From: Bdellovibrionota bacterium
GTDB taxonomy: Bacteria; Bdellovibrionota_C; UBA2361; JBIKWN01
DNA length: 30,587 nt
Reading direction: 5' to 3'
Assembly: GCA_044356295.1 (NCBI GenBank)
Contig: JBIKWN010000028.1
Span: forward strand, 1-30,587
Below are positions 2,879 through 30,121 of the stretch, in pieces (position 1 is the first letter of the stretch; each line of letters begins with the position of its first letter). Position numbers and translations under genes: made by a program. Under the pieces are notes generated by a model. It was not told the DNA's origin. It saw nothing but the letters and a program-made list of their open reading frames with translations, and did not search any database.

Positions 2879-4408
2879 TTATCCTAACGATATTCGAGGA
2901 AACAAAATATCCTCTTTTTTAATCTCAAGCCCTTCTTTTAGCACTCCCCAAACCTGTGCATCAGAAAGAGTGGGCTTCTTTGAAATTCCAAACTGTAGAA
3001 GTATTTTTTCGCACTTTTCTGGCATTACAGGTGATAAGAGGACTGCAGCAATGCGAAGTACCTCAAGGCAAACGCTCAGGCATTCACCTGTTTTTTCTTT
3101 ATCTTCTTTGACCAGTTTCCAAGGGGCTATCTCATCTATGTATTTGTTTGTTGCAGTTAAAAGTTCAATAACTACTCCAATAGCAGCTTGAGGAGCCATT
3201 CGAAGAATTTCATCTTTTACCTTTGAAGCTGTTGATAAGGCTAACTCTTGAATTAACTTTGATTGAGGGAGTAAACCTTTCTCTGCTGGTTTTTTACAGT
3301 CGTAATATTTTTCAACAAGATTGGTAATTCGACTTAATAGGTTACCCAAGTTGTTTGATAATTCACTGTTAATCCGATTAACGACAATTTGTGGAGAAAA
3401 AGAAGCATCGTTTCCTAAAACTGTTTCTCTAATAAGAAAATAGCGAAACGGATCAGTACCAACAAGGTTTTGCATATCAAGAGGACTCACTACTTTACCC
3501 TCTGATTTACTCATTTTTCCACCATCATCATTGAGCCACCATCCATGTGCAAAAACTTGTTTTGGAAGTGGAAGACCAAGTGCCATGAGCATTGTCGTCC
3601 AATAAACGGTGTGTGTGATTAGGATATCTTTTCCGAGTAAATGAACTGTATGAGGCCATAAACGGTCAAAGTTCTTTTGCCGTTCCTCACCTTGCTTTAA
3701 ACCGATTGCGGAGCAGTAGTTAAGGAGTGCATCAAACCATACATAGGTAACAAAATCCTTATCAAAAGGAATTTCAATTCCCCAAGATAGCCTTGCTTTG
3801 GGGCGACTAATACACAGATCTTGAAGCGGCTGTCTTAAAAACCCAAGCACCTCGCTTCTTTTACCATCAGGTTGAATAAAAAGAGGGTTCTTATCAATGT
3901 AATCAATCAAAGCTGCTTGATACTTTGACATTTTAAAGAAGTAATTTTTTTCAGAGATCTTTGTTACATCTTTGCCCATTGGGCTTTTCCCGTTTACAAG
4001 ATCTTTTTCTGTATAGAAAATCTCTTCACTAACTGAATACCACCCTTCGTATTCATGGGCATAGATATCACCTTTATCAAAGAGCTCTTGCAGGCAGTCT
4101 TGAACTACCTTTGTGTGATATGGAAAAGTTGTTCTCATAAAAATATCATAATCGATATTTAATTCTTTCCATGCTTCTTGAAAACGAACGCAAAGTTCAT
4201 CGCAATGCACTTGTGGGGGAAGTCCTCTTTTTTCTGCTGCAGCTTGTACTTTTTGACCATGCTCATCTGTGCCAGTAAGAAAGAATGATTCTTCGTTGAA
4301 GAGCTTGTGATATCTGTGTAAGACGTCTGCGACAACGGTAGTATAAGCATGCCCAATGTGCGGCACATCATTTACATAATAGATTGGTGTTGTGACATAA
4401 AAAGTCAT
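2879..4408 (-). CDS. metG: Methionine--tRNA ligase (short form, Cys-less knuckle)
   Basis: FYVTTPIYYVNDVPHIGHAYT (HIGH), TGTDEHGQK, YVWFDALLNY, GKDI and KMSKS. Confidence 0.98.
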   Translation of the reverse strand: MTFYVTTPIYYVNDVPHIGHAYTTVVADVLHRYHKLFNEESFFLTGTDEHGQKVQAAAEKRGLPPQVHCDELCVRFQEAWKELNIDYDIFMRTTFPYHTKVVQDCLQELFDKGDIYAHEYEGWYSVSEEIFYTEKDLVNGKSPMGKDVTKISEKNYFFKMSKYQAALIDYIDKNPLFIQPDGKRSEVLGFLRQPLQDLCISRPKARLSWGIEIPFDKDFVTYVWFDALLNYCSAIGLKQGEERQKNFDRLWPHTVHLLGKDILITHTVYWTTMLMALGLPLPKQVFAHGWWLNDDGGKMSKSEGKVVSPLDMQNLVGTDPFRYFLIRETVLGNDASFSPQIVVNRINSELSNNLGNLLSRITNLVEKYYDCKKPAEKGLLPQSKLIQELALSTASKVKDEILRMAPQAAIGVVIELLTATNKYIDEIAPWKLVKEDKEKTGECLSVCLEVLRIAAVLLSPVMPEKCEKILLQFGISKKPTLSDAQVWGVLKEGLEIKKEDILFPRISLG

Positions 4409-5778
4409 CGTTTAAATAAACCTCCCAGATTTCCAATTCCCTTCATTCCGCCACCCATCATATTCATCATTCCACCGAGTCCCATCTTAGAGACCTGATT
4501 CATCATTTTTTTCATCTCGGTAAATTGTTTTAACAGAGTATTAATATCTTCAACTCTTGTGCCAGATCCTTTTGCAATACGTTTACGACGACTGCCATTT
4601 AAGATTTCGGGTGCTGCCCTTTCTTTTGGAGTCATTGAAAGAATGATAGCTTCAACTTTGCTCATTTCTTTCTCTGCTTTTTCAGGATCGACTTGTTTCA
4701 CGAGTTTATCCATTCCAGGAATCATTCCTGCAAGGCTTGTGATACTTCCCATTTTTTTTATCATTTTCATTTGATTGAGGAAGTCTTGTAGATCGAATGT
4801 ATTTTTCTTGAACTTTTTTTGAAGCGCCAACGTTTCTTCAATACTTACTTCTTTTGAAGCTTTTTCAATCAAGGTCAGAACATCGCCCATGCCAAGAATC
4901 CTCGAAGCGATTCTTTCTGGGTGAAATACTTCGAGACCATCTAATTTCTCAGCAACACCAATAAATTTAATTGGCTTGCCGGTTACAGCTCGCATTGATA
5001 AGGCGGCTCCACCTCGTGCATCACCATCAAATTTTGTCAGAATAAGGCCGTCGATTTCTAAAGCGGCATCGAACCCTTCTGCCACACGGACAGATTCTTG
5101 TCCAGTCATAGCATCAGCAACTAATAGGATTTCATGTGGCTCAATCGCGGCAGAGATCTCTTGAAGCTCTTTCATGAGATCCGTATCTATTTGAAGTCGA
5201 CCTGCAGTATCTATGATGACAGTATCGAGGCCATGATTTTTAGCGAACTGGACAGCGTTCTTTGCAATCTCAAGTGGATCTTGGTTTTCATTTGAATCAA
5301 ATACTTGCACACCAGCTTGAGCTCCAAGAGTTTTTAGCTGAGTTATAGCAGCAGCTCTGTAAACGTCTGCAGGTACTAATAAAGGAGATCGTCTTAGTTC
5401 TTGTTTAATGTACTTGGCAAGTTTAGCGCAGGTCGTGGTTTTTCCTGATCCTTGAAGTCCAACCAACATGATGATTGCAGGCGGAGCCACTTTAAGATCT
5501 AGTTCAGTCGATTGTGCTCCCATCATTTCAATGAGCTGTTCGTGGACAAGTTTAATAACTTGTTGAGCAGGAGATAAGCTTTTTAAAACTGATTCACCAA
5601 CAGCTAAGCTTTCAACTTTTTGGCAAAATTCTTTTGCAACTTTAAAATTTACATCAGCTTCCAAAAGAGCTACGCGAACTTCTTTGAGAGTTTCACTAAC
5701 GTCTTTTTCAGTGAGGGTTCCACGCCCTCTAATTTTATTAAAAGCTGCCTCGAGCTTGCCTTGGAGTGAATCAAACAT
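4405..5778 (-). CDS. ffh: Signal recognition particle protein Ffh
   Basis: ALLEADV, GLQGSGKTTT, DTAGRLQ, TKFDGDARGGAALS, ERIASRILGMGD and a Met-rich M domain. Its TGA overlaps the metG ATG (ATGA). Confidence 0.98.
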   Translation of the reverse strand: MFDSLQGKLEAAFNKIRGRGTLTEKDVSETLKEVRVALLEADVNFKVAKEFCQKVESLAVGESVLKSLSPAQQVIKLVHEQLIEMMGAQSTELDLKVAPPAIIMLVGLQGSGKTTTCAKLAKYIKQELRRSPLLVPADVYRAAAITQLKTLGAQAGVQVFDSNENQDPLEIAKNAVQFAKNHGLDTVIIDTAGRLQIDTDLMKELQEISAAIEPHEILLVADAMTGQESVRVAEGFDAALEIDGLILTKFDGDARGGAALSMRAVTGKPIKFIGVAEKLDGLEVFHPERIASRILGMGDVLTLIEKASKEVSIEETLALQKKFKKNTFDLQDFLNQMKMIKKMGSITSLAGMIPGMDKLVKQVDPEKAEKEMSKVEAIILSMTPKERAAPEILNGSRRKRIAKGSGTRVEDINTLLKQFTEMKKMMNQVSKMGLGGMMNMMGGGMKGIGNLGGLFKR

Positions 5779-5849: not shown

Positions 5850-6590
5850 TTAAGAAAAATCCAAAGAAAGTGGAGAAGGCCCTTTTTGGGTCACAACACC
5901 AAGAGCAGTTGAGGGGTCTAAGTTTGCTTCTTTAGCAACACTGACTGAAACTCTGAAAGCGTCGTCTTCAGACCTTATAGCACTTGGTCTTTTTAAAGCT
6001 TCAGTTTCAACTTTAACGCCTTCAGTTGCACCCATAACCGATTCTCTAAGCGCGGCAAATTGAGCCTGAGCTTTTGCAACAATATTTCTTGTCATCAAAA
6101 CTCCAGCTCGCGTTGATAATACAAGACTTGGAGGTTGAGCCGGCGGTTCTGGTACGATTGTTTCAAGCGCTTGCTCTGAAGATGAAGAAACTGAAGTAGG
6201 TACTGATTTCGTAGAGACAGTAGTTCGTAATCCAGATCCAACTTTCTGAATTTCTGCCATAATCTCTGTAACTTCTTGTTGCAGTTTGTAAACTTGATCG
6301 CTTGATGCGTTGGTTACTTGACTTGTTATTCCTGCAACACTTCGAAGTAGTGCTGAGATCTTCTCTGCTTGCTCTGAAAGAACATTAATTGATCCTACAG
6401 AGATATTAGCTTTTTCAAGCTTCTGATTTCTGAGCGTTACAGCAACAGTTCTATCATCTGATAGATCTTTACTATCAACTATACTAACTTCTTGAGGAAT
6501 AGCTTCTTTGATTTTTTGTTCTGATTGAACTGGCACAGTTGAAGAAGCAGAAGCGCCATTTATATTATTTTGTACATCCTTTACATCCAT
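5850..6590 (-). CDS. Hypothetical protein, probable degenerate flagellin-like protein
   Basis: EKANISVGSINVLSEQAEKISALLRSVAGITSQVTNASSDQVYKLQQEVTEIMAEIQKV echoes the flagellin N-terminal D1 helices. LSTRAG...AQAQFAALRESVMGA...SAIRSEDDA...ANLDPSTALGVVTQKGPSPLSL echoes the flagellin C-terminus. A GGAGGT RBS (6594-6599) and a sigma-28-like promoter lie upstream. Alignment was by eye only. Confidence 0.6.
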   Translation of the reverse strand: MDVKDVQNNINGASASSTVPVQSEQKIKEAIPQEVSIVDSKDLSDDRTVAVTLRNQKLEKANISVGSINVLSEQAEKISALLRSVAGITSQVTNASSDQVYKLQQEVTEIMAEIQKVGSGLRTTVSTKSVPTSVSSSSEQALETIVPEPPAQPPSLVLSTRAGVLMTRNIVAKAQAQFAALRESVMGATEGVKVETEALKRPSAIRSEDDAFRVSVSVAKEANLDPSTALGVVTQKGPSPLSLDFS

Positions 6591-6650
6591 ACTACCTCCA
6601 TCACGTCCTTGTAATGGTACTTACACAACAAACTTGTCATGTAACAATAT

Positions 6651-6677
6651 TAGTCGGCAGAATTTTCCATAGCTTAA
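6651..6677 (-). promoter_or_regulatory. Sigma-28 (FliA)-type promoter
   Basis: The minus strand reads TTAAG-N14-GCCGACTA, versus consensus TAAAG-N14-GCCGATAA, 60 nt upstream of the flagellin-like ORF. Confidence 0.65.
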
Positions 6678-6735: not shown

Positions 6736-7110
6736 TTACATGACGCCAATAAGCGATCTGATCATCGAGTAGGGGATTTTCTTACAAGTTATTCGAATTC
6801 CATCTTGGGTTTGCAGTATTGAAAAGCAGTCCCACCGTTCAGCACCAAGCTCATTGAGCCTTCCTTCAACCGTTTGCCCAGAGTAAGGGGTCTGTATGGT
6901 TTCAACTCTATATTCAATTTTAAATACTGCCTGGGCGCCATCAGTAGCTTTTTCAGAGATAGATCCTGCTATAGGAGCAATCTGACTTGATAAATTACTG
7001 ACCTTAGATTTCATTTCATCCAGAGATTGCTGATTGATTGGATCTTGGCATCCGCAAAGGTGAACTACTAGAAAAGTAAAGATAAAGAAGAAGCTTGATA
7101 CTTTGCTCAT
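6736..7110 (-). CDS. Lipoprotein with a C-terminal DUF4177-like domain
   Basis: Signal peptide with lipobox-like HLCGC. EYRVETI...VEGRLNELGAERWDCFSI matches the DUF4177 pattern EYKV...LNELGxxGWE. Confidence 0.65.
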   Translation of the reverse strand: MSKVSSFFFIFTFLVVHLCGCQDPINQQSLDEMKSKVSNLSSQIAPIAGSISEKATDGAQAVFKIEYRVETIQTPYSGQTVEGRLNELGAERWDCFSILQTQDGIRITCKKIPYSMIRSLIGVM

Positions 7111-7290: not shown

Positions 7291-7875
7291 TTACCAGTCA
7301 GGTAATTTATCAGATTGATATTTTTCTTTATTTAAAACATCCCTTAATTGTTCAAGAGAGTGAAGAGTTTTTCTTCTCACTACTTCCAGCTCTTGATTCG
7401 CTGTTGCTTGAGAAGTGATAATCCCAAGTTTAATCACGCAAGCAGTAATGTAGGTATTTGCCCGCTCCTTCCATTCATACAGGGAGTTAAGACGTGCATT
7501 TGTAAGAGATGTAATTTCTTTAAAAGGTTTTTTTCTTGGATTATCAATATATGATATTAATTTTTCTGCAGAAGCGTAGTTGTTATCATCAATAAATTTT
7601 TTGATGTCATCATTAGCTACTAAAAGTTGGTTCCTAATCTTAATTGCCTCAGGAAGTCCTGCTTCATTTAGTGTTTGAAAGTATTTACCAGCATTTTCTT
7701 CGAGTAGAGAAAGTTGATTAAAGAATGCCTGCTGTCTCCTACGGAGCTTCAAGAAGCTTGCTTCAACTTGCTCCTTAGTCGAGTTAGAACCAGACTTGCT
7801 GTGAAAGTAACAGGTGAGGGTATAGGCAGTACTCATTACGAGAATAACGTATGTAGAAAGTTCAAGATTCATCAC
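7291..7875 (-). CDS. Hypothetical protein with an N-terminal hydrophobic anchor and helical/coiled-coil body
   Basis: 194-codon ORF with hydrophobic YVILVMSTAYTLTCYF followed by amphipathic helices; no recognised motif. Confidence 0.65.
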   Translation of the reverse strand: MMNLELSTYVILVMSTAYTLTCYFHSKSGSNSTKEQVEASFLKLRRRQQAFFNQLSLLEENAGKYFQTLNEAGLPEAIKIRNQLLVANDDIKKFIDDNNYASAEKLISYIDNPRKKPFKEITSLTNARLNSLYEWKERANTYITACVIKLGIITSQATANQELEVVRRKTLHSLEQLRDVLNKEKYQSDKLPDW

Positions 7876-8058: not shown

Positions 8059-8244
8059 ATGTTACTAAATTTATCCCTATCTCGGTTTTTACCTTTATTT
8101 TTACTAACACTAGTAAGTTTGCTCGGTATTTTTCTGTCTGAACAATCAGTACCGGAGCTAGCCCTAGACCCTCGATTATTATCAGCGGGAGACACAGCCT
8201 GGATGCTAACAGCTACAGCTCTAGTTTTATTAATGACTCATTGA
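8059..8244 (+). pseudogene. amtB: 5' remnant of an ammonium transporter (signal-like segment plus first TM helix)
   Basis: LSAGDTAWMLTATALVLLMT is the conserved Amt TM1. It is followed by H-stop instead of the usual PGLALFYGG. Confidence 0.85.
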
Positions 8245-9953
8245 AAAGATTCATTCGCAAGATGCAAGACTTGCTCCGCACGTTCCTCAGGCTGACCAAA
8301 AGCTGCAGCGATTGGTGTTGGAATAACACCAAGTTTTTTCCATGAGGATTTAATTGACCATCGAAGTAGTGATCGAATTAGCTCGTTTTGTGGTCTTCCC
8401 GAACTTGTTACATAAGGTGGTAAATCTTCAAGCATAAGAACTTTTTGATAACGAATACTTTGACCCCACATCTTTAGAGTTTGGATGAGACGTTTAATCT
8501 CTTTTCTTTCAGCTCTCCAATCGCTGCACTGATTAGTATTGATATAGCGATCATCTTTGAGAATTTTTCTCATAAGAGATCTTATAAAGTTAGGTTGTGT
8601 CGATAAAAGAACCAGTTGAAGCATTCCAAGATAGTCGCCAATTCCCCTATCACAAATAATTGGAAGTATGGGTGCATGAATATCTTTATTCTTAATCTCT
8701 TCTTGAAGTGTTATGAGCTTTTGAATATGTCGTGATGCAGTAGTTTCGATGATTGGAACAACAAATCTTATGGCATCTTGTGAGGTAAAGCCTTTTTCAA
8801 GTGTATTACCAATAATATCTGGAATCATTTCGTCGATGATAGTTGCTTCCTTTGAAAGAATCGTAACTGTTGTAGTTTTACCCGCACTCGCATTTCCAGT
8901 AAGTACGGTTGCAGGAGTTAAAATAACGTTACCTTTTTTTGGTGGAAGTAATGATGAGGCTTGTGAATTAATAAAAAAGTAACGATTCTTTTCTTCTTTA
9001 TTTAGTGAAATATTTTTTTGGATTACTGGATATAAAGTTTCCTGTGCGAGCTGTCGTATTAATAATTCAAGTTCCATGGTGAGAAGGTTTTGAGCTACAC
9101 CATCTTCTTCTGCGTTATTTCTTGCTTTATGAAATGGACACCCTTTTCGAGCCGCTTGTAGCTCACTCCTTGGTATTTCGGCAGATAGTGAATCGGCGCT
9201 CAAGGTAATATCTTCGAACCAGTCGTCTCGAAGATCGAGTGTGTTTCCATTCCATTGAAGTGAAAGGTTCTGTGGATTTCCGATGATACCAAAGCTCATC
9301 AAGGAGCGGGTCGCTAACTTAGATATCATTCCATAAAAATTATTTGCATAAGCATCGATTTTTTCTGGTGACGTATCGATGCTTGGTCTGGAATCAGTAT
9401 CTGTTTTTAATAGTTGAGTAACTGGTGCTGATGCAGCCCATAAAAGAAAGATCAAACCTGTCTCGATTCCTTCTATAAGTCTTTTATCAAGCACAGAATC
9501 TGAGCCAGCACGAGCTACTCTAAAAGGAGATTCCTCATACATTTGACGAGTTTTATCAAAAAGTTCTGCAAATGATTTTTCTTGTTTAGCTTGAGCTAGT
9601 GCGATTGAATAGAAAGAGGTAAATAACTGTAAAGAGCCATCTCTCCACATTGAGCAAATTGATGTTGGTGATATATTTTCTAGATCGCTATCAGGATTGA
9701 GATATTCCCAGAGAAGTTTAGAATTAAATTTATCCTCAGTATGTAATTCAAATTCGGAATTAACACATGCCAAGAAATAGGGCCAAACTTTTTCAAGAAT
9801 ACGTGTAAGATTTTCATGGAGCTCACAATAATTTCCCCCTTCAACGGAGTCAGTTTTAGTAAATGTTAGATCACTTCGCTCGTAGTTAATGAGCAACTTT
9901 ACAAGTGCGTCAGAATTCGACGGAGTTCTAGAGTGATGCGTATGGAGAGTCAT
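8238..9953 (-). CDS. Orphan two-part protein: unknown N-terminal region with a GCPF motif plus a C-terminal P-loop NTPase/kinase (AAA_28/NadR-like)
   Basis: Walker A VLTGNASAGKTT, then IICDRGIGDYLG, YQKVLMLEDLPPY...SGR and PEERAEQVL, typical of AAA_28. RKGCPFH at 9129-9149. Confidence 0.75.
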   Translation of the reverse strand: MTLHTHHSRTPSNSDALVKLLINYERSDLTFTKTDSVEGGNYCELHENLTRILEKVWPYFLACVNSEFELHTEDKFNSKLLWEYLNPDSDLENISPTSICSMWRDGSLQLFTSFYSIALAQAKQEKSFAELFDKTRQMYEESPFRVARAGSDSVLDKRLIEGIETGLIFLLWAASAPVTQLLKTDTDSRPSIDTSPEKIDAYANNFYGMISKLATRSLMSFGIIGNPQNLSLQWNGNTLDLRDDWFEDITLSADSLSAEIPRSELQAARKGCPFHKARNNAEEDGVAQNLLTMELELLIRQLAQETLYPVIQKNISLNKEEKNRYFFINSQASSLLPPKKGNVILTPATVLTGNASAGKTTTVTILSKEATIIDEMIPDIIGNTLEKGFTSQDAIRFVVPIIETTASRHIQKLITLQEEIKNKDIHAPILPIICDRGIGDYLGMLQLVLLSTQPNFIRSLMRKILKDDRYINTNQCSDWRAERKEIKRLIQTLKMWGQSIRYQKVLMLEDLPPYVTSSGRPQNELIRSLLRWSIKSSWKKLGVIPTPIAAAFGQPEERAEQVLHLANESFQ

Positions 9954-14823: not shown

Positions 14824-15219
14824 TTATTTCGACGCAAATGTTGTGACGCACCCACCACCCATTCTATTAAGGTGGACATCTATCATTTTGATGATAATTC
14901 CCGATTTATTCTCATTTAAGCTTGAACATTCAACAGTGTAATTTCGAGTGAAATCTTTGTATGCGCGAGACCAGTACATAGTCTTGGTACCCTTAGGCAT
15001 AAGAGCGAACTCACCAGGTTTTAAGGTATAGGCTGCTCCTCCACCTGAAACTTTTACTATATTATAACGAGCATCTTGGATATCGTTTCGTATTCTTATG
15101 CGACCATTTGGAGGAGCTGATTCGCATCCGGTTATACATAGAAAAAAAGTAGGAATGAATAAGAGGTGAAATTTTGATAACCTCTTAAGTCTATAGTACA
15201 TTTCTCTCTTCCAACTCAT
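14824..15219 (-). CDS. Small beta-rich putative lipoprotein (true start may be the ATG at 15201)
   Basis: Basic N-region, hydrophobic stretch and lipobox-like ITGC; two further Cys. Only 10 bp separate the longest start from the divergent hpt start. Confidence 0.65.
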   Translation of the reverse strand: MSWKREMYYRLKRLSKFHLLFIPTFFLCITGCESAPPNGRIRIRNDIQDARYNIVKVSGGGAAYTLKPGEFALMPKGTKTMYWSRAYKDFTRNYTVECSSLNENKSGIIIKMIDVHLNRMGGGCVTTFASK

Positions 15220-27736: not shown

Positions 27737-28708
27737 GTGCAAAAAATAAGAAAAATTCTTAATTTTCTCCTCCCTTTAGCTGCAGTTTTGCTGCTTTACC
27801 ATGCTGTCGACGTAAACGCGCTTATTAAACTTTTTAGTCAATTGTCATTTAAAACAATAGCGTGGCTCATGTGTATCAGCTTTATGCTTGTTCTGGTGAG
27901 CTCCATAAAGTGGAAAATTTTTATAAGTTTTCTTGGCGGAAAAACTTCCCTCCATGAACTATATCGATTGTATCTTGTTGGATATTTTATAAACTTAATT
28001 TTGCCATCATATCTTGGAGGTGATGCAGTTCGAAGTTTTAAAATTGGAAAATCTGTTGGACAACATCGAGCTGCGGCAGCAACAATCTTGGAACGATATA
28101 CAGGATTTACAGCAATGCTCTTCCTTGGGCTTGTCGCATCTATTTTTACTTCGTTAGCTACATGGCAAATGGAGGCGATATTAATTATTCTTTTCCTTGG
28201 TGTATGTATTTTTACAACTTTATCGCTCAGTTATACATTAAGATCTTATTTTACTTTCATTCCATACTTTTCAAAGATTGAAGTTCATTTAAATAAGATT
28301 TCTGAAGCTTTTCATCTTGTTAAAGGTAACGGTAGGGTTTTATTGCAAACGTATCTTCTGTCGTTTCTCTATCATTCATTGACGGTCTTAAATACTTGGG
28401 CGTGTGCTTCTGCCGTAGGATGGTCTAGTCCAAGCATTGGGTCGCTGTTTGTTGTTCTCCCAATTATTTTAACAATTGGAGCTGTTCCTATTTCCCCTCA
28501 AGGATTAGGCATTCAAGAGGGAGCGTTTTATTTTTTTCTTACAAGGCTTGGTGCAACACCAGAGCAGGCTTTGGGAATTGCACTCATTTTAAGAGCGAAG
28601 GGTTATGTCCTCGCCTTAATTGGAGGACTTCTCTACAGGTTCCCAGTTTCTACCTCTTACCAGCAGAACGTATCATCTGATAAGGAAAAGCAGGCTCTGG
28701 AGGAGTAG
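27737..28708 (+). CDS. Lysylphosphatidylglycerol synthase TM-domain / flippase-like protein (UPF0104)
   Basis: KWKI, GYFINLILPSYLGGDAVRS, ILERYTG and VPISPQGLGIQEGA; polytopic. Confidence 0.92.
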   Translation: MQKIRKILNFLLPLAAVLLLYHAVDVNALIKLFSQLSFKTIAWLMCISFMLVLVSSIKWKIFISFLGGKTSLHELYRLYLVGYFINLILPSYLGGDAVRSFKIGKSVGQHRAAAATILERYTGFTAMLFLGLVASIFTSLATWQMEAILIILFLGVCIFTTLSLSYTLRSYFTFIPYFSKIEVHLNKISEAFHLVKGNGRVLLQTYLLSFLYHSLTVLNTWACASAVGWSSPSIGSLFVVLPIILTIGAVPISPQGLGIQEGAFYFFLTRLGATPEQALGIALILRAKGYVLALIGGLLYRFPVSTSYQQNVSSDKEKQALEE

Positions 28709-29123
28709 GGTCTTGATCGTTTGCGTTTTCACGACGAGTCTTTGGACTAAAATCAGGGCATATTTCTTTAACGACGCTATCTTTTCGAGACTCAGACTGA
28801 GCGCGCCATAACAAGGAAGCATTCACATCACCGCTACAACCTCGACAGGTAAAATTATCCCAGTTCAGAGCAGCTGCCATATTCAAGCATGTTTCATAGT
28901 GAGAACAACTATATCTTCTTTTTGGAGCATCACTTGGCAGGTCTAGGGTTTCTGATTCTATAATTTGAAAAGGACCAGGTTTACCAAAAGAGTAAGGGGA
29001 ATCTGTTAATGTCTGATTTGAAACTATATGACGATTTGAAGAATAGTTTGAAGGTAAAGAAGTTTTTAATTCCACATCAGTGGACAATTTTTTTAGAGGA
29101 TTCAAATCGATCTTCTTAACCAT
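28650..29123 (-). CDS. Hypothetical protein with a four-Cys putative metal-binding motif
   Basis: RRYSCSHYETCLNMAAALNWDNFTCRGC (Cx5C...CxxC). Overlaps the flippase gene tail-to-tail by 59 bp. Confidence 0.7.
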   Translation of the reverse strand: MVKKIDLNPLKKLSTDVELKTSLPSNYSSNRHIVSNQTLTDSPYSFGKPGPFQIIESETLDLPSDAPKRRYSCSHYETCLNMAAALNWDNFTCRGCSGDVNASLLWRAQSESRKDSVVKEICPDFSPKTRRENANDQDPTPPEPAFPYQMIRSAGKR

Positions 29124-29467: not shown

Positions 29468-30121
29468 ATGTCTTCTGGTGACCACGTAAATATTATTTCC
29501 TCTCAAGGTACAGGACGAAATTTTGTAATTTTGTTTGAGAGAAGTTCACTCTACCAACAAAATTCTGAACAGCTTTTAGAAAAACTTTCTTTGACCGCAA
29601 AAGTTTTTTTACTAGAAGTGCCAATTGTTACGGCATCAAATTGGAATGCAACTACTATTGAAATTGAAAAACAGATTGAAGCTCAAAAAATTCGCCAAGC
29701 TTCATTTGTGACATTCGGGGACACTGGAGTTCTTGCTCAAAATATTTATCTAAGATCTCCAAAATCTGTCCGCTCGCTCTTATTGATTGATGCAACAAGC
29801 AGTCCCCACCCAACGTTGTGGAGTAGGTGTGTCGATAGTCTTGAAGCTCATTTTCCGCTTGGCCTTCCGCTTCGCAATGAAGATAAAAATTTTAATGCGA
29901 GAGCCCATCTACAACGAATTCGGTGCCCGGTACTGAGGGTAACGACAGCTCATGCTAGCCAACTTATGAAATTGCAGGCAATCGAAGATGCTTATGCAAT
30001 GCCGACAGCATGGAATTGCGATCTTCCAACAGAGTATTTTGGTGAAAATGAGTCGTCTGTATTAGCAGTTATCGCTGAACAGTTTCAGGAGATCCCTGCG
30101 AAGTGCCCTCAAGGTTCGTAG
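29468..30121 (+). CDS. Degenerate alpha/beta-hydrolase fold protein
   Basis: SQGTGRNFVIL, ASFVTFGDTGVLAQ at the nucleophile-elbow position without GxSxG, PKSVRSLLLIDA and LQRIRCPVL. Confidence 0.75.
   Translation: MSSGDHVNIISSQGTGRNFVILFERSSLYQQNSEQLLEKLSLTAKVFLLEVPIVTASNWNATTIEIEKQIEAQKIRQASFVTFGDTGVLAQNIYLRSPKSVRSLLLIDATSSPHPTLWSRCVDSLEAHFPLGLPLRNEDKNFNARAHLQRIRCPVLRVTTAHASQLMKLQAIEDAYAMPTAWNCDLPTEYFGENESSVLAVIAEQFQEIPAKCPQGS

Follow-up and report, generated by a model that had tools for sequence, protein, structure and literature searches.

An order-wide family of predicted flagellin-derived proteins in the Bdellovibrionota

The gene and its flagellin ancestry

The window analysed here is a stretch of 30,587 nucleotides from an uncultured member of the Bdellovibrionota (contig JBIKWN010000028.1 of assembly GCA_044356295.1), and the sequencing runs that contain its DNA are lake-water metagenomes (19 runs listed, none of them recorded as RNA). 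The source assembly amounts to 2.96 Mb in 128 contigs at 38.6% G+C. On the minus strand, at 5850..6590 with its stop codon at 5850-5852, lies an open reading frame (ORF) of 246 codons, whose reading as the gene of a flagellin-derived protein draws on the ORF list, its orthologues and profile homology. Judged by comparison of family profiles, the gene is a strongly diverged flagellin paralogue in which the D1 helical core has been kept, the N-terminal D0 segment (ND0) is unrecognisable and the C-terminal one (CD0) is degenerate. We consider it very probable that the product is a flagellin-derived, non-filament protein under sigma-28 control.

All features of this gene lie on the minus strand. 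Residues 1-43 (6462..6590) begin with M-D-V-K-D-V and continue as a variable polar segment that, in alignments, takes the place of ND0. Residues 43-127 (6210..6464) are predicted to form two N-terminal D1-like helices (RN..KAN.SVGS.. and KLQQEVTEIMAEIQKV), recognised in the structural model, by hhalign and by VIA-align. They are followed, in alignments and model alike, by a short linker rich in Ser and Pro, with a conserved PEPP motif, that stands where flagellin has its D2/D3 domains (residues 128-160, 6111..6209; the Ser/Pro-rich composition extends over residues ~121-160). Residues 161-234 (5889..6110) comprise a modelled C-terminal D1-like helix and a degenerate CD0 remnant (IRSEDDAF...DPSTALG), colinear with flagellin CD1/CD0, and the Pro/Gly-rich tail KGPSPLSLDFS at residues 235-246 (5853..5888) is aligned by hhalign to the flagellin C-terminal end. 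The CD0 region is thus colinear with flagellin to the last residue, but it is interrupted by Pro and Gly.

Taken singly, the protein is not detectable as a flagellin: it has no flagellin match at E ≤ 10 in Pfam and none in NCBIfam, only sub-threshold unrelated families, and it lies below the Pfam gathering cut-offs of Flagellin_N and Flagellin_C. A weak FspA match is noise (E 0.21; 12 bits, where the cut-off is 120). Searches with BLASTP and phmmer through the full set of 8,963 ORFs in the genome did not connect the protein to the genome's own flagellins, and a Flagellin_N scan of the same genome gave 22 places, 21 of them above the cut-off, with the 246-residue ORF not among them. The similarity emerges at the level of the family. 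An alignment of four sequences was marginal in hhalign, with 47.9% local and 0.4% global probability and flagellin 53-128 aligned. An exhaustive phmmer search of 1.84 billion representatives returned only 14 proteins at E ≤ 1e-3, and the profile made from these 14 sequences had 52 matches at E ≤ 10 among PDB sequences, 43 of which are named flagellin or flagellin homologue and none FlgL; the top 13 are all flagellins, with 9atl the best at E 1.8e-7. The alignment is colinear, profile positions 25-155 matching chain positions 29-161 in the N-terminal part and positions 177-248 matching FliC 411-482 in the C-terminal part. Among the 14 relatives themselves, Pfam finds Flagellin_N in three (best E 9.5e-6) and Flagellin_C in one (E 0.034).

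The comparison with flagellins of the window's own genome is the clearest. Aligned profile to profile with six of them in hhalign, a profile of 38 sequences gave 97.05% probability and E 7.8e-11 over 209 columns, with columns 56-265 of 272 corresponding to flagellin 60-286 of 287, that is, from ND1 through the last residues; hhalign pairs IRSEDDAF with SRIRDVDVA and the PLSLDF end with LALTLLR. The family profile also cross-matches true flagellins in the scanned genomes, for example C45:1069-1392 in the window's own genome (E 1.5e-8). Such colinear and significant similarity places the protein in the flagellin superfamily by homology. An earlier note, made from the window's letters, had proposed a flagellin-derived protein on the strength of flagellin-like residue patterns at about residues 55-120 and at the C-terminus, with a short Ser/Pro centre; family profiles bear this out, with D1 retained and the C-terminus degenerate but colinear, although the patterns are invisible to single-sequence searches.

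ND0 is a different matter. The N-terminal D0 helix of filament-forming flagellins, with its INTN...RLSSG.RIN pattern, is not recognisable in the window protein, and the first 50 residues of the family have no profile similarity to flagellin ND0 (P 0.72, as against 0.75 for a reversed control), so that the replacement of this segment, also proposed in the earlier note, stands. A remnant of RLSSG.RIN in typical family members proved to be a visual impression that was not significant in the ND0 profile comparison.

Structure prediction agrees with a flagellin D1 fold. The model of the window protein (mean predicted local distance difference test, pLDDT, 70.7) has helices at residues 43-92, 97-127, 132-145, 161-200 and 208-234, and its residues 1-43 and 235-246 have pLDDT below 50. 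VIA-align places flagellin and FlgL D1 domains on top (9lah at Z 14.2, with a root-mean-square deviation of 2.5 over 157 residues; the FlgL structures 2d4x and 7c7z at Z 13.1 and 12.7). A de novo helical bundle scores Z 14.1, near the best flagellin, and the fold alone is therefore not decisive. In Foldseek, the window model returns nothing at E ≤ 0.001, with flagellar filaments at ranks 1-5. A typical family member, P0011, is modelled at pLDDT 76.4 with the D1 helices, a small beta-hairpin in the linker region and a C-terminal helix at 244-264, its residues 1-46 being of low pLDDT; its 12 Foldseek matches at E ≤ 1e-3 consist of flagellins from flagellar filaments and a flagellin homologue, with no unrelated fold among them. 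By VIA-align and by Foldseek on P0011, the modelled fold is that of flagellin D1.

A sigma-28-type promoter and a predicted structured leader

Upstream of the gene is a sequence with both elements of a sigma-28-type promoter at canonical spacing: a -35 element, TTAAG, at 6673..6677 and a -10 element, GCCGACTAA, at 6650..6658, both on the minus strand, 60 nucleotides upstream of the ATG. The motif THAAG-N15-CCGAY has a single match on both strands of the 30.6-kb window (TTAAG-N15-CCGAC, 6677-6653), where 0.24 are expected. By a generous comparison, 23 of 28 orthologues have a slightly looser motif in the 200 nucleotides before them (at -73 to -155); among other 200-nucleotide windows from the same loci, 21 of 1019 contain it. 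With a position weight matrix built from 21 distinct orthologue sites, the window's own site excluded, that site ranks 74th among 5.9 million positions of the genome, and an equally good score occurs within 250 nucleotides upstream of 0.76% of 2,119 other ORFs of at least 150 residues. The genome encodes FliA (C128:27689-28357, 247.7 bits, above the cut-off). On this sequence pattern the sigma-28-type promoter, already remarked on in the earlier note, is real and conserved in orthologues.

How much does such a promoter say about function? In E. coli the sigma-28 consensus consists of -35 TAAA and -10 (G)CCGATA(A) type elements. For Bdellovibrio bacteriovorus, Karunker et al. report TTAAG-N16-CCGATA in 92 of 140 mapped attack-phase promoters, describe FliA as now regulating the attack phase globally, with many non-flagellar genes among its targets, and mention FliA-driven small RNAs (PMC3627812). 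The spacer, counted as 15 here and in the orthologue consensus, is one less than the published N16. Since FliA drives many non-flagellar attack-phase genes, a sigma-28 promoter is by itself no proof of a flagellar role in this phylum, and it points to one less strongly than the earlier note had supposed.

Most of the top-scoring sites in the genome lie inside long ORFs or have no downstream ORF of at least 80 residues, and they yielded no regulon list. The best-scoring sites of the genome, C63:47299(+), C98:11417(-), C62:3161(+) and C11:7846(-), have no ORF of at least 80 residues within 300 nucleotides downstream; one of these lies just beyond fliW and points back at it, and sites of this kind may drive small genes or small RNAs. 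Separately, a 689-residue ORF beside two flagellin genes, at C38:25619-27688 (-), has a weak Flagellin_N match (E 1.6e-6) and a sigma-28-like site that scores 11.8, equal to the window site.

The transcript predicted from this promoter would have a leader of ~52 nucleotides that folds into two hairpins (dG -16.6, z -2.61; 2 of 200 shuffles fold as well). The first predicted hairpin occupies 6621..6644 and the second 6598..6617, both on the minus strand; the second is formed by CCAUUAC and GUGAUGG around the loop AAGGAC (6610-6605), and its 3' arm overlaps the Shine-Dalgarno (SD) sequence GGAGG (6599-6595). Hairpins that hold GGA in a loop of 4-8 nucleotides within 50 nucleotides upstream of the start stand before 14 of 18 flagellin genes of the same genome, as against 205 of 2182 other ORFs (9.4%), again by a generous definition. 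GGA motifs are bound by CsrA-type regulators (PMC4894983), and from the leader sequences we infer that CsrA control may be common to the window gene and the flagellins. Rfam families were found neither in the window nor in the loci of four relatives.

The relatives' leaders are arranged differently. In 19 typical orthologues (loci L024-L046), GGAG(G) lies 40-83 nucleotides upstream of the ATG, and in 18 of the 19 a stem directly follows this distal GGAG(G), its 3' arm ending 6-9 nucleotides before the ATG. The stem duplex has a mean energy of -13.1 kcal/mol with its own partner and -7.3 with mismatched partners, the own partner ranking 1-3 in 15 of 19. GGAG, GAGG and AGGA are all absent from positions -18 to -7 in 13 of the 19, several of which have GGAAG in the 3' arm. 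Such an arrangement suggests either that a hairpin of variable sequence carries the Shine-Dalgarno sequence to the start codon or that the stem is an anti-SD one. It is absent from the window's own gene; in the relatives, a distal Shine-Dalgarno sequence bridged by a hairpin would make a testable translational control element.

Distribution, neighbourhood and flagellar gene complement

The gene belongs to a family that is, as a rule, present once per genome and is restricted to one order of the Bdellovibrionota. Of 124 Bdellovibrionota genomes scanned with the 14-sequence profile, 91 belong to the window's order, and 49 of these, the window genome counted, have full-length matches (best E ≤ 6e-15). 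The remaining 33, from other orders, have none of this strength; weaker matches in other orders and elsewhere are flagellin cross-matches. A metagenome scan with the four-sequence alignment added one near-duplicate locus. The frame is intact and the architecture conserved across orthologues. Nearly all of these proteins are called 'hypothetical protein' in databases; the name 'flagellin-like hook-associated protein FlgL' is given to one cluster member, and a precomputed PF00669 is attached to one protein. Bdellovibrio-directed literature searches returned no account of this family, which is flagellin-derived and lies outside the curated flagellin models.

Two properties of its sequences stand out. 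The N-terminal hexapeptide, M-[DE]-[VI]-K-D-V, hardly varies across the family, M1 being invariant, and a motif of this type is unique among the ORFs of the window's genome. The codons vary at synonymous sites between loci, so it is the peptide and not the RNA that is conserved, and an RNA motif at this position was dropped as a candidate. The remainder of the protein changes quickly. The window protein is 40% and 30% identical to its counterparts in two other genomes of the genus, where true flagellin is 88% and 87% identical, and Ffh of the window is 92% identical to the copy at locus L009; by these sequence comparisons, the pace of change in the family is several times that of true flagellins. 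The window protein, L009, P0003 and P0004 make up a more degenerate clade, which has an eight-residue deletion before IRSEDDAF and lacks the terminal L.LL of typical members.

The neighbour conserved with the gene is ffh (SRP54 by Pfam), downstream on the minus strand at 4405..5778 and separated from the 246-residue ORF by a gap of 71 nucleotides; metG comes after ffh, in the same orientation. Of 28 loci whose proteins are distinct, 20 have ffh downstream on the gene's own strand; this count takes in the window itself as well as L009 and L017, which are near-duplicates. Neither a sigma-70-like nor a terminator-like site is listed on the minus strand between 5600 and 7300, the gap before ffh included, and in the absence of a listed terminator read-through into ffh is possible. 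Directly upstream, at 6736..7110 on the minus strand, is a 124-residue ORF with a lipoprotein-like N-terminus, relatives of which stand upstream of the flagellin-like gene in 12 of the 28 loci. B. bacteriovorus HD100 has the 90-residue Bd2124 upstream of its ffh, Bd2123 (PMC3627812 supplement file 2), so this strain offers no syntenic orthologue from which expression data could be borrowed.

Flagellar Pfam families are absent from all 23 neighbouring ORFs scanned in the window. The description of the gene as stand-alone in the earlier note is apt in this respect, that no flagellar genes surround it; the gene is no lone oddity, however, but one of a family that is usually syntenic with ffh. Elsewhere, an ORF open at the window's start (3-1166, +) encodes collagen triple-helix repeats (Pfam, E 7.3e-28), and five ORFs of 131-571 residues are without a Pfam family at E ≤ 0.001: one on the upstream side of the gene without assigned function (7291..7875, minus strand), and those at 8238-9953 (-), 14824-15219 (-), 28650-29123 (-) and 29468-30121 (+).

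The genome is rich in flagellar genes. Alongside fliA, which the earlier note had asked to be looked for together with canonical flagellins, it has ~19 flagellin genes, in size classes of ~286 and ~610-630 residues and several of them in tandem (examples are C45:970-1830, C74:38081-42080 and C38:28835-30636). With fliA and many canonical flagellins present, none of the observations that the earlier note named as contradicting its reading has been encountered. FliW, CsrA and FliS are all encoded. The genome's own flgL, at C98:9429-10424, is adjacent to csrA and fliW (L013:1059-1415 and 1417-1884); CsrA on C98 has 118 residues, of which only the first ~52 correspond to the Pfam CsrA model (53 positions). 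Four FlgM-like ORFs lie above the Pfam cut-off (C18:32240-32398, C4:405-536, C70:69659-69742 and C68:3587-3745), and the idea that the window protein replaces FlgM was dropped on their account.

Possible roles and known systems

What might a flagellin without a recognisable N-terminal D0 do? Assembly into filament or other axial structures requires both D0 helices, and with ND0 unrecognisable we infer that this is no ordinary filament subunit. The gene is probably expressed together with late flagellar and attack-phase genes and under flagellin-like, CsrA-type translational control, as its promoter and leader suggest. The role we favour, tentatively and at rather less than an even chance, is that of a regulatory flagellin which does not polymerise, belongs to the CsrA-FliW circuit and is perhaps exported via its disordered N-terminus; its logic would resemble that of the regulatory flagellin paralogue in Caulobacter. 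In Bacillus, FliW is described as binding the N-terminal part of flagellin D1N together with a region of D1C, and FliS as wrapping around D0-C (PMC6070490), so the parts retained here would present a FliW-type rather than a FliS-type surface. The D1 core could still be recognised by flagellin partners such as FliW, the disordered N-terminus could direct the protein to flagellar type III export, and the cytoplasmic level of the protein would in that case report export competence and tune the translation of the ~19 flagellin genes. A co-fold of FliW with residues 40-236 of the window protein (29-row alignment; score 0.12, mark 0.32) speaks neither for nor against binding. A more elaborate version, which we offer as speculation and think unlikely to be right, makes the protein an export-sensor of the CsrA-FliW circuit: a D1-only mimic that would hold FliW or another partner until the export gate opens and would then itself be exported via its disordered N-terminus, releasing translation of the ~19 structural flagellins, while in most relatives its own translation would also be gated by the distal-SD hairpin leader.

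Several observations weigh against a regulatory role of this kind. One would expect slower change in a conserved partner-binding surface than is seen in a protein that keeps 30-40% identity within the genus, where flagellin keeps 87-88% and Ffh 92%. The conserved neighbour is ffh and not a flagellar gene, and many attack-phase genes outside the flagellar system are likewise driven by FliA in B. bacteriovorus. Scored with the matrix derived from the orthologues, the flagellin genes of the window's own genome do poorly (the best true flagellin reaches 4.5), the long ones having TAAC-N15-GTCGAT-like sites and the short ones none, which leaves co-regulation with the flagellins conjectural. The shared CsrA control is weakened by the closest relative, L009, whose loop reads AGGTAG, without GGA. 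Both the promoter expression and the hairpin definition were written after the sequences had been viewed, so that the enrichments reported for them are generous.

Rapid evolution would be better accommodated by either of two other accounts than by a conserved partner. The protein might be a secreted, non-filament flagellin similar in logic to FlaC, which would leave by type III export in attack phase and act outside the cell, for instance at the prey surface; we think this rather unlikely. Its N-terminal 43 residues are disordered in the model, polar and variable, with no Sec signal and with the conserved M-D-V-K-D-V start, very fast evolution within a genus is often seen in exposed or secreted proteins, the sigma-28 regulon is described as the attack-phase regulon in Bdellovibrio (PMC3627812), and FlaC is a precedent for a secreted flagellin outside motility (PMC4863622); yet FliS wraps around the C-terminal D0 (PMC6070490), a part that is degenerate in the clade of the window protein, and FlaC has both conserved termini where this family has no recognisable ND0. 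Less probable still is a non-flagellar attack-phase helical-bundle protein of flagellin descent, perhaps co-transcribed with ffh, whose promoter would reflect the global role of FliA. The resemblance of the leader to the flagellin leaders of the same genome, and the full D1 architecture and C-terminal colinearity kept across the order, stand against this account, to which rapid divergence, the conserved ffh downstream, the lack of a listed terminator-like site and the FliA sites of non-flagellar attack-phase genes (PMC3627812) lend some support.

A structural role fares worse. The D1 fold is common to flagellin and FlgL, one cluster member has been labelled FlgL by a source and typical members keep the modelled C-terminal helix 244-264, all of which would suit a minor structural flagellin or an FlgL-like hook-filament junction protein at a special position of the flagellum or its sheath; but with an ND0 that is unrecognisable and modelled as disordered in a class of proteins that need both D0 helices, a separate FlgL encoded beside csrA and fliW, and no FlgL among the 43 flagellar PDB matches, we judge such a role improbable. 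It is very improbable indeed that the gene is a flagellin pseudogene in decay or a helical ORF that exists by chance and has no function: low conservation, and a single sequence that misses every flagellin model, might suggest decay, but the frame is intact, the start, architecture and promoter are conserved, the gene is found across 49 of 91 genomes of the order, and the flagellin profile E-values are far below chance.

Flagellin is among the best-studied bacterial proteins, and this family adds to it an uncharacterised, order-wide relative without ND0. To our knowledge, few flagellin paralogues have left filament building, the main examples being FlaC and the regulatory flagellin of Caulobacter. 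If regulatory or secreted, the protein would reveal how flagellin genes are coordinated in cells that have very many of them; alternatively, it would be an extra flagellar-export cargo in the attack-phase toolkit of bacterial predators.

Set beside flagellin proper (FliC/Hag; PF00669, PF00700), the family shares colinearity from ND1 to the C-terminal end, the D1 helical fold and, in the model of P0011, the D1 beta-hairpin, and the window gene, with its sigma-28-type promoter, has a GGA-hairpin leader like those of most flagellin genes in its own genome. Unlike flagellin, the window protein has no recognisable ND0, no D2/D3 and a degenerate CD0, lies below the Pfam thresholds and is encoded in single copy near ffh, outside any flagellar cluster. 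FlgL has the D1 fold in common with it and lends its name to one family member; the genome has its own FlgL, however, the family profile matches flagellins and ND0 is absent, and we do not count the protein as an FlgL.

Caulobacter crescentus FljJ is a near-canonical flagellin, and the regulatory flagellin system of Caulobacter works with FlbT/FlaF. The likeness lies in the setting, many flagellin genes, of which the window genome has ~19 and Caulobacter six with a regulatory paralogue among them (PMC7591256); the window genome differs in having CsrA and FliW, and its protein is far from a canonical flagellin. Campylobacter jejuni FlaC, too, is a short relative of flagellin; it has no central domains and does not serve as a subunit of the motility filament (PMC4863622), but it has flagellin-like N- and C-termini and has been shown experimentally to be secreted, whereas the present family has lost ND0. 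The Sphingomonas cell-surface flagellin homologues (PDB 2ZBI and 3K8V, titled 'bacterial cell-surface flagellin') are matched by the family profile at E 2.6e-4 and 3.2e-4 and by Foldseek as well; they are near-canonical flagellins, unlike the window protein, which keeps the D1 core.

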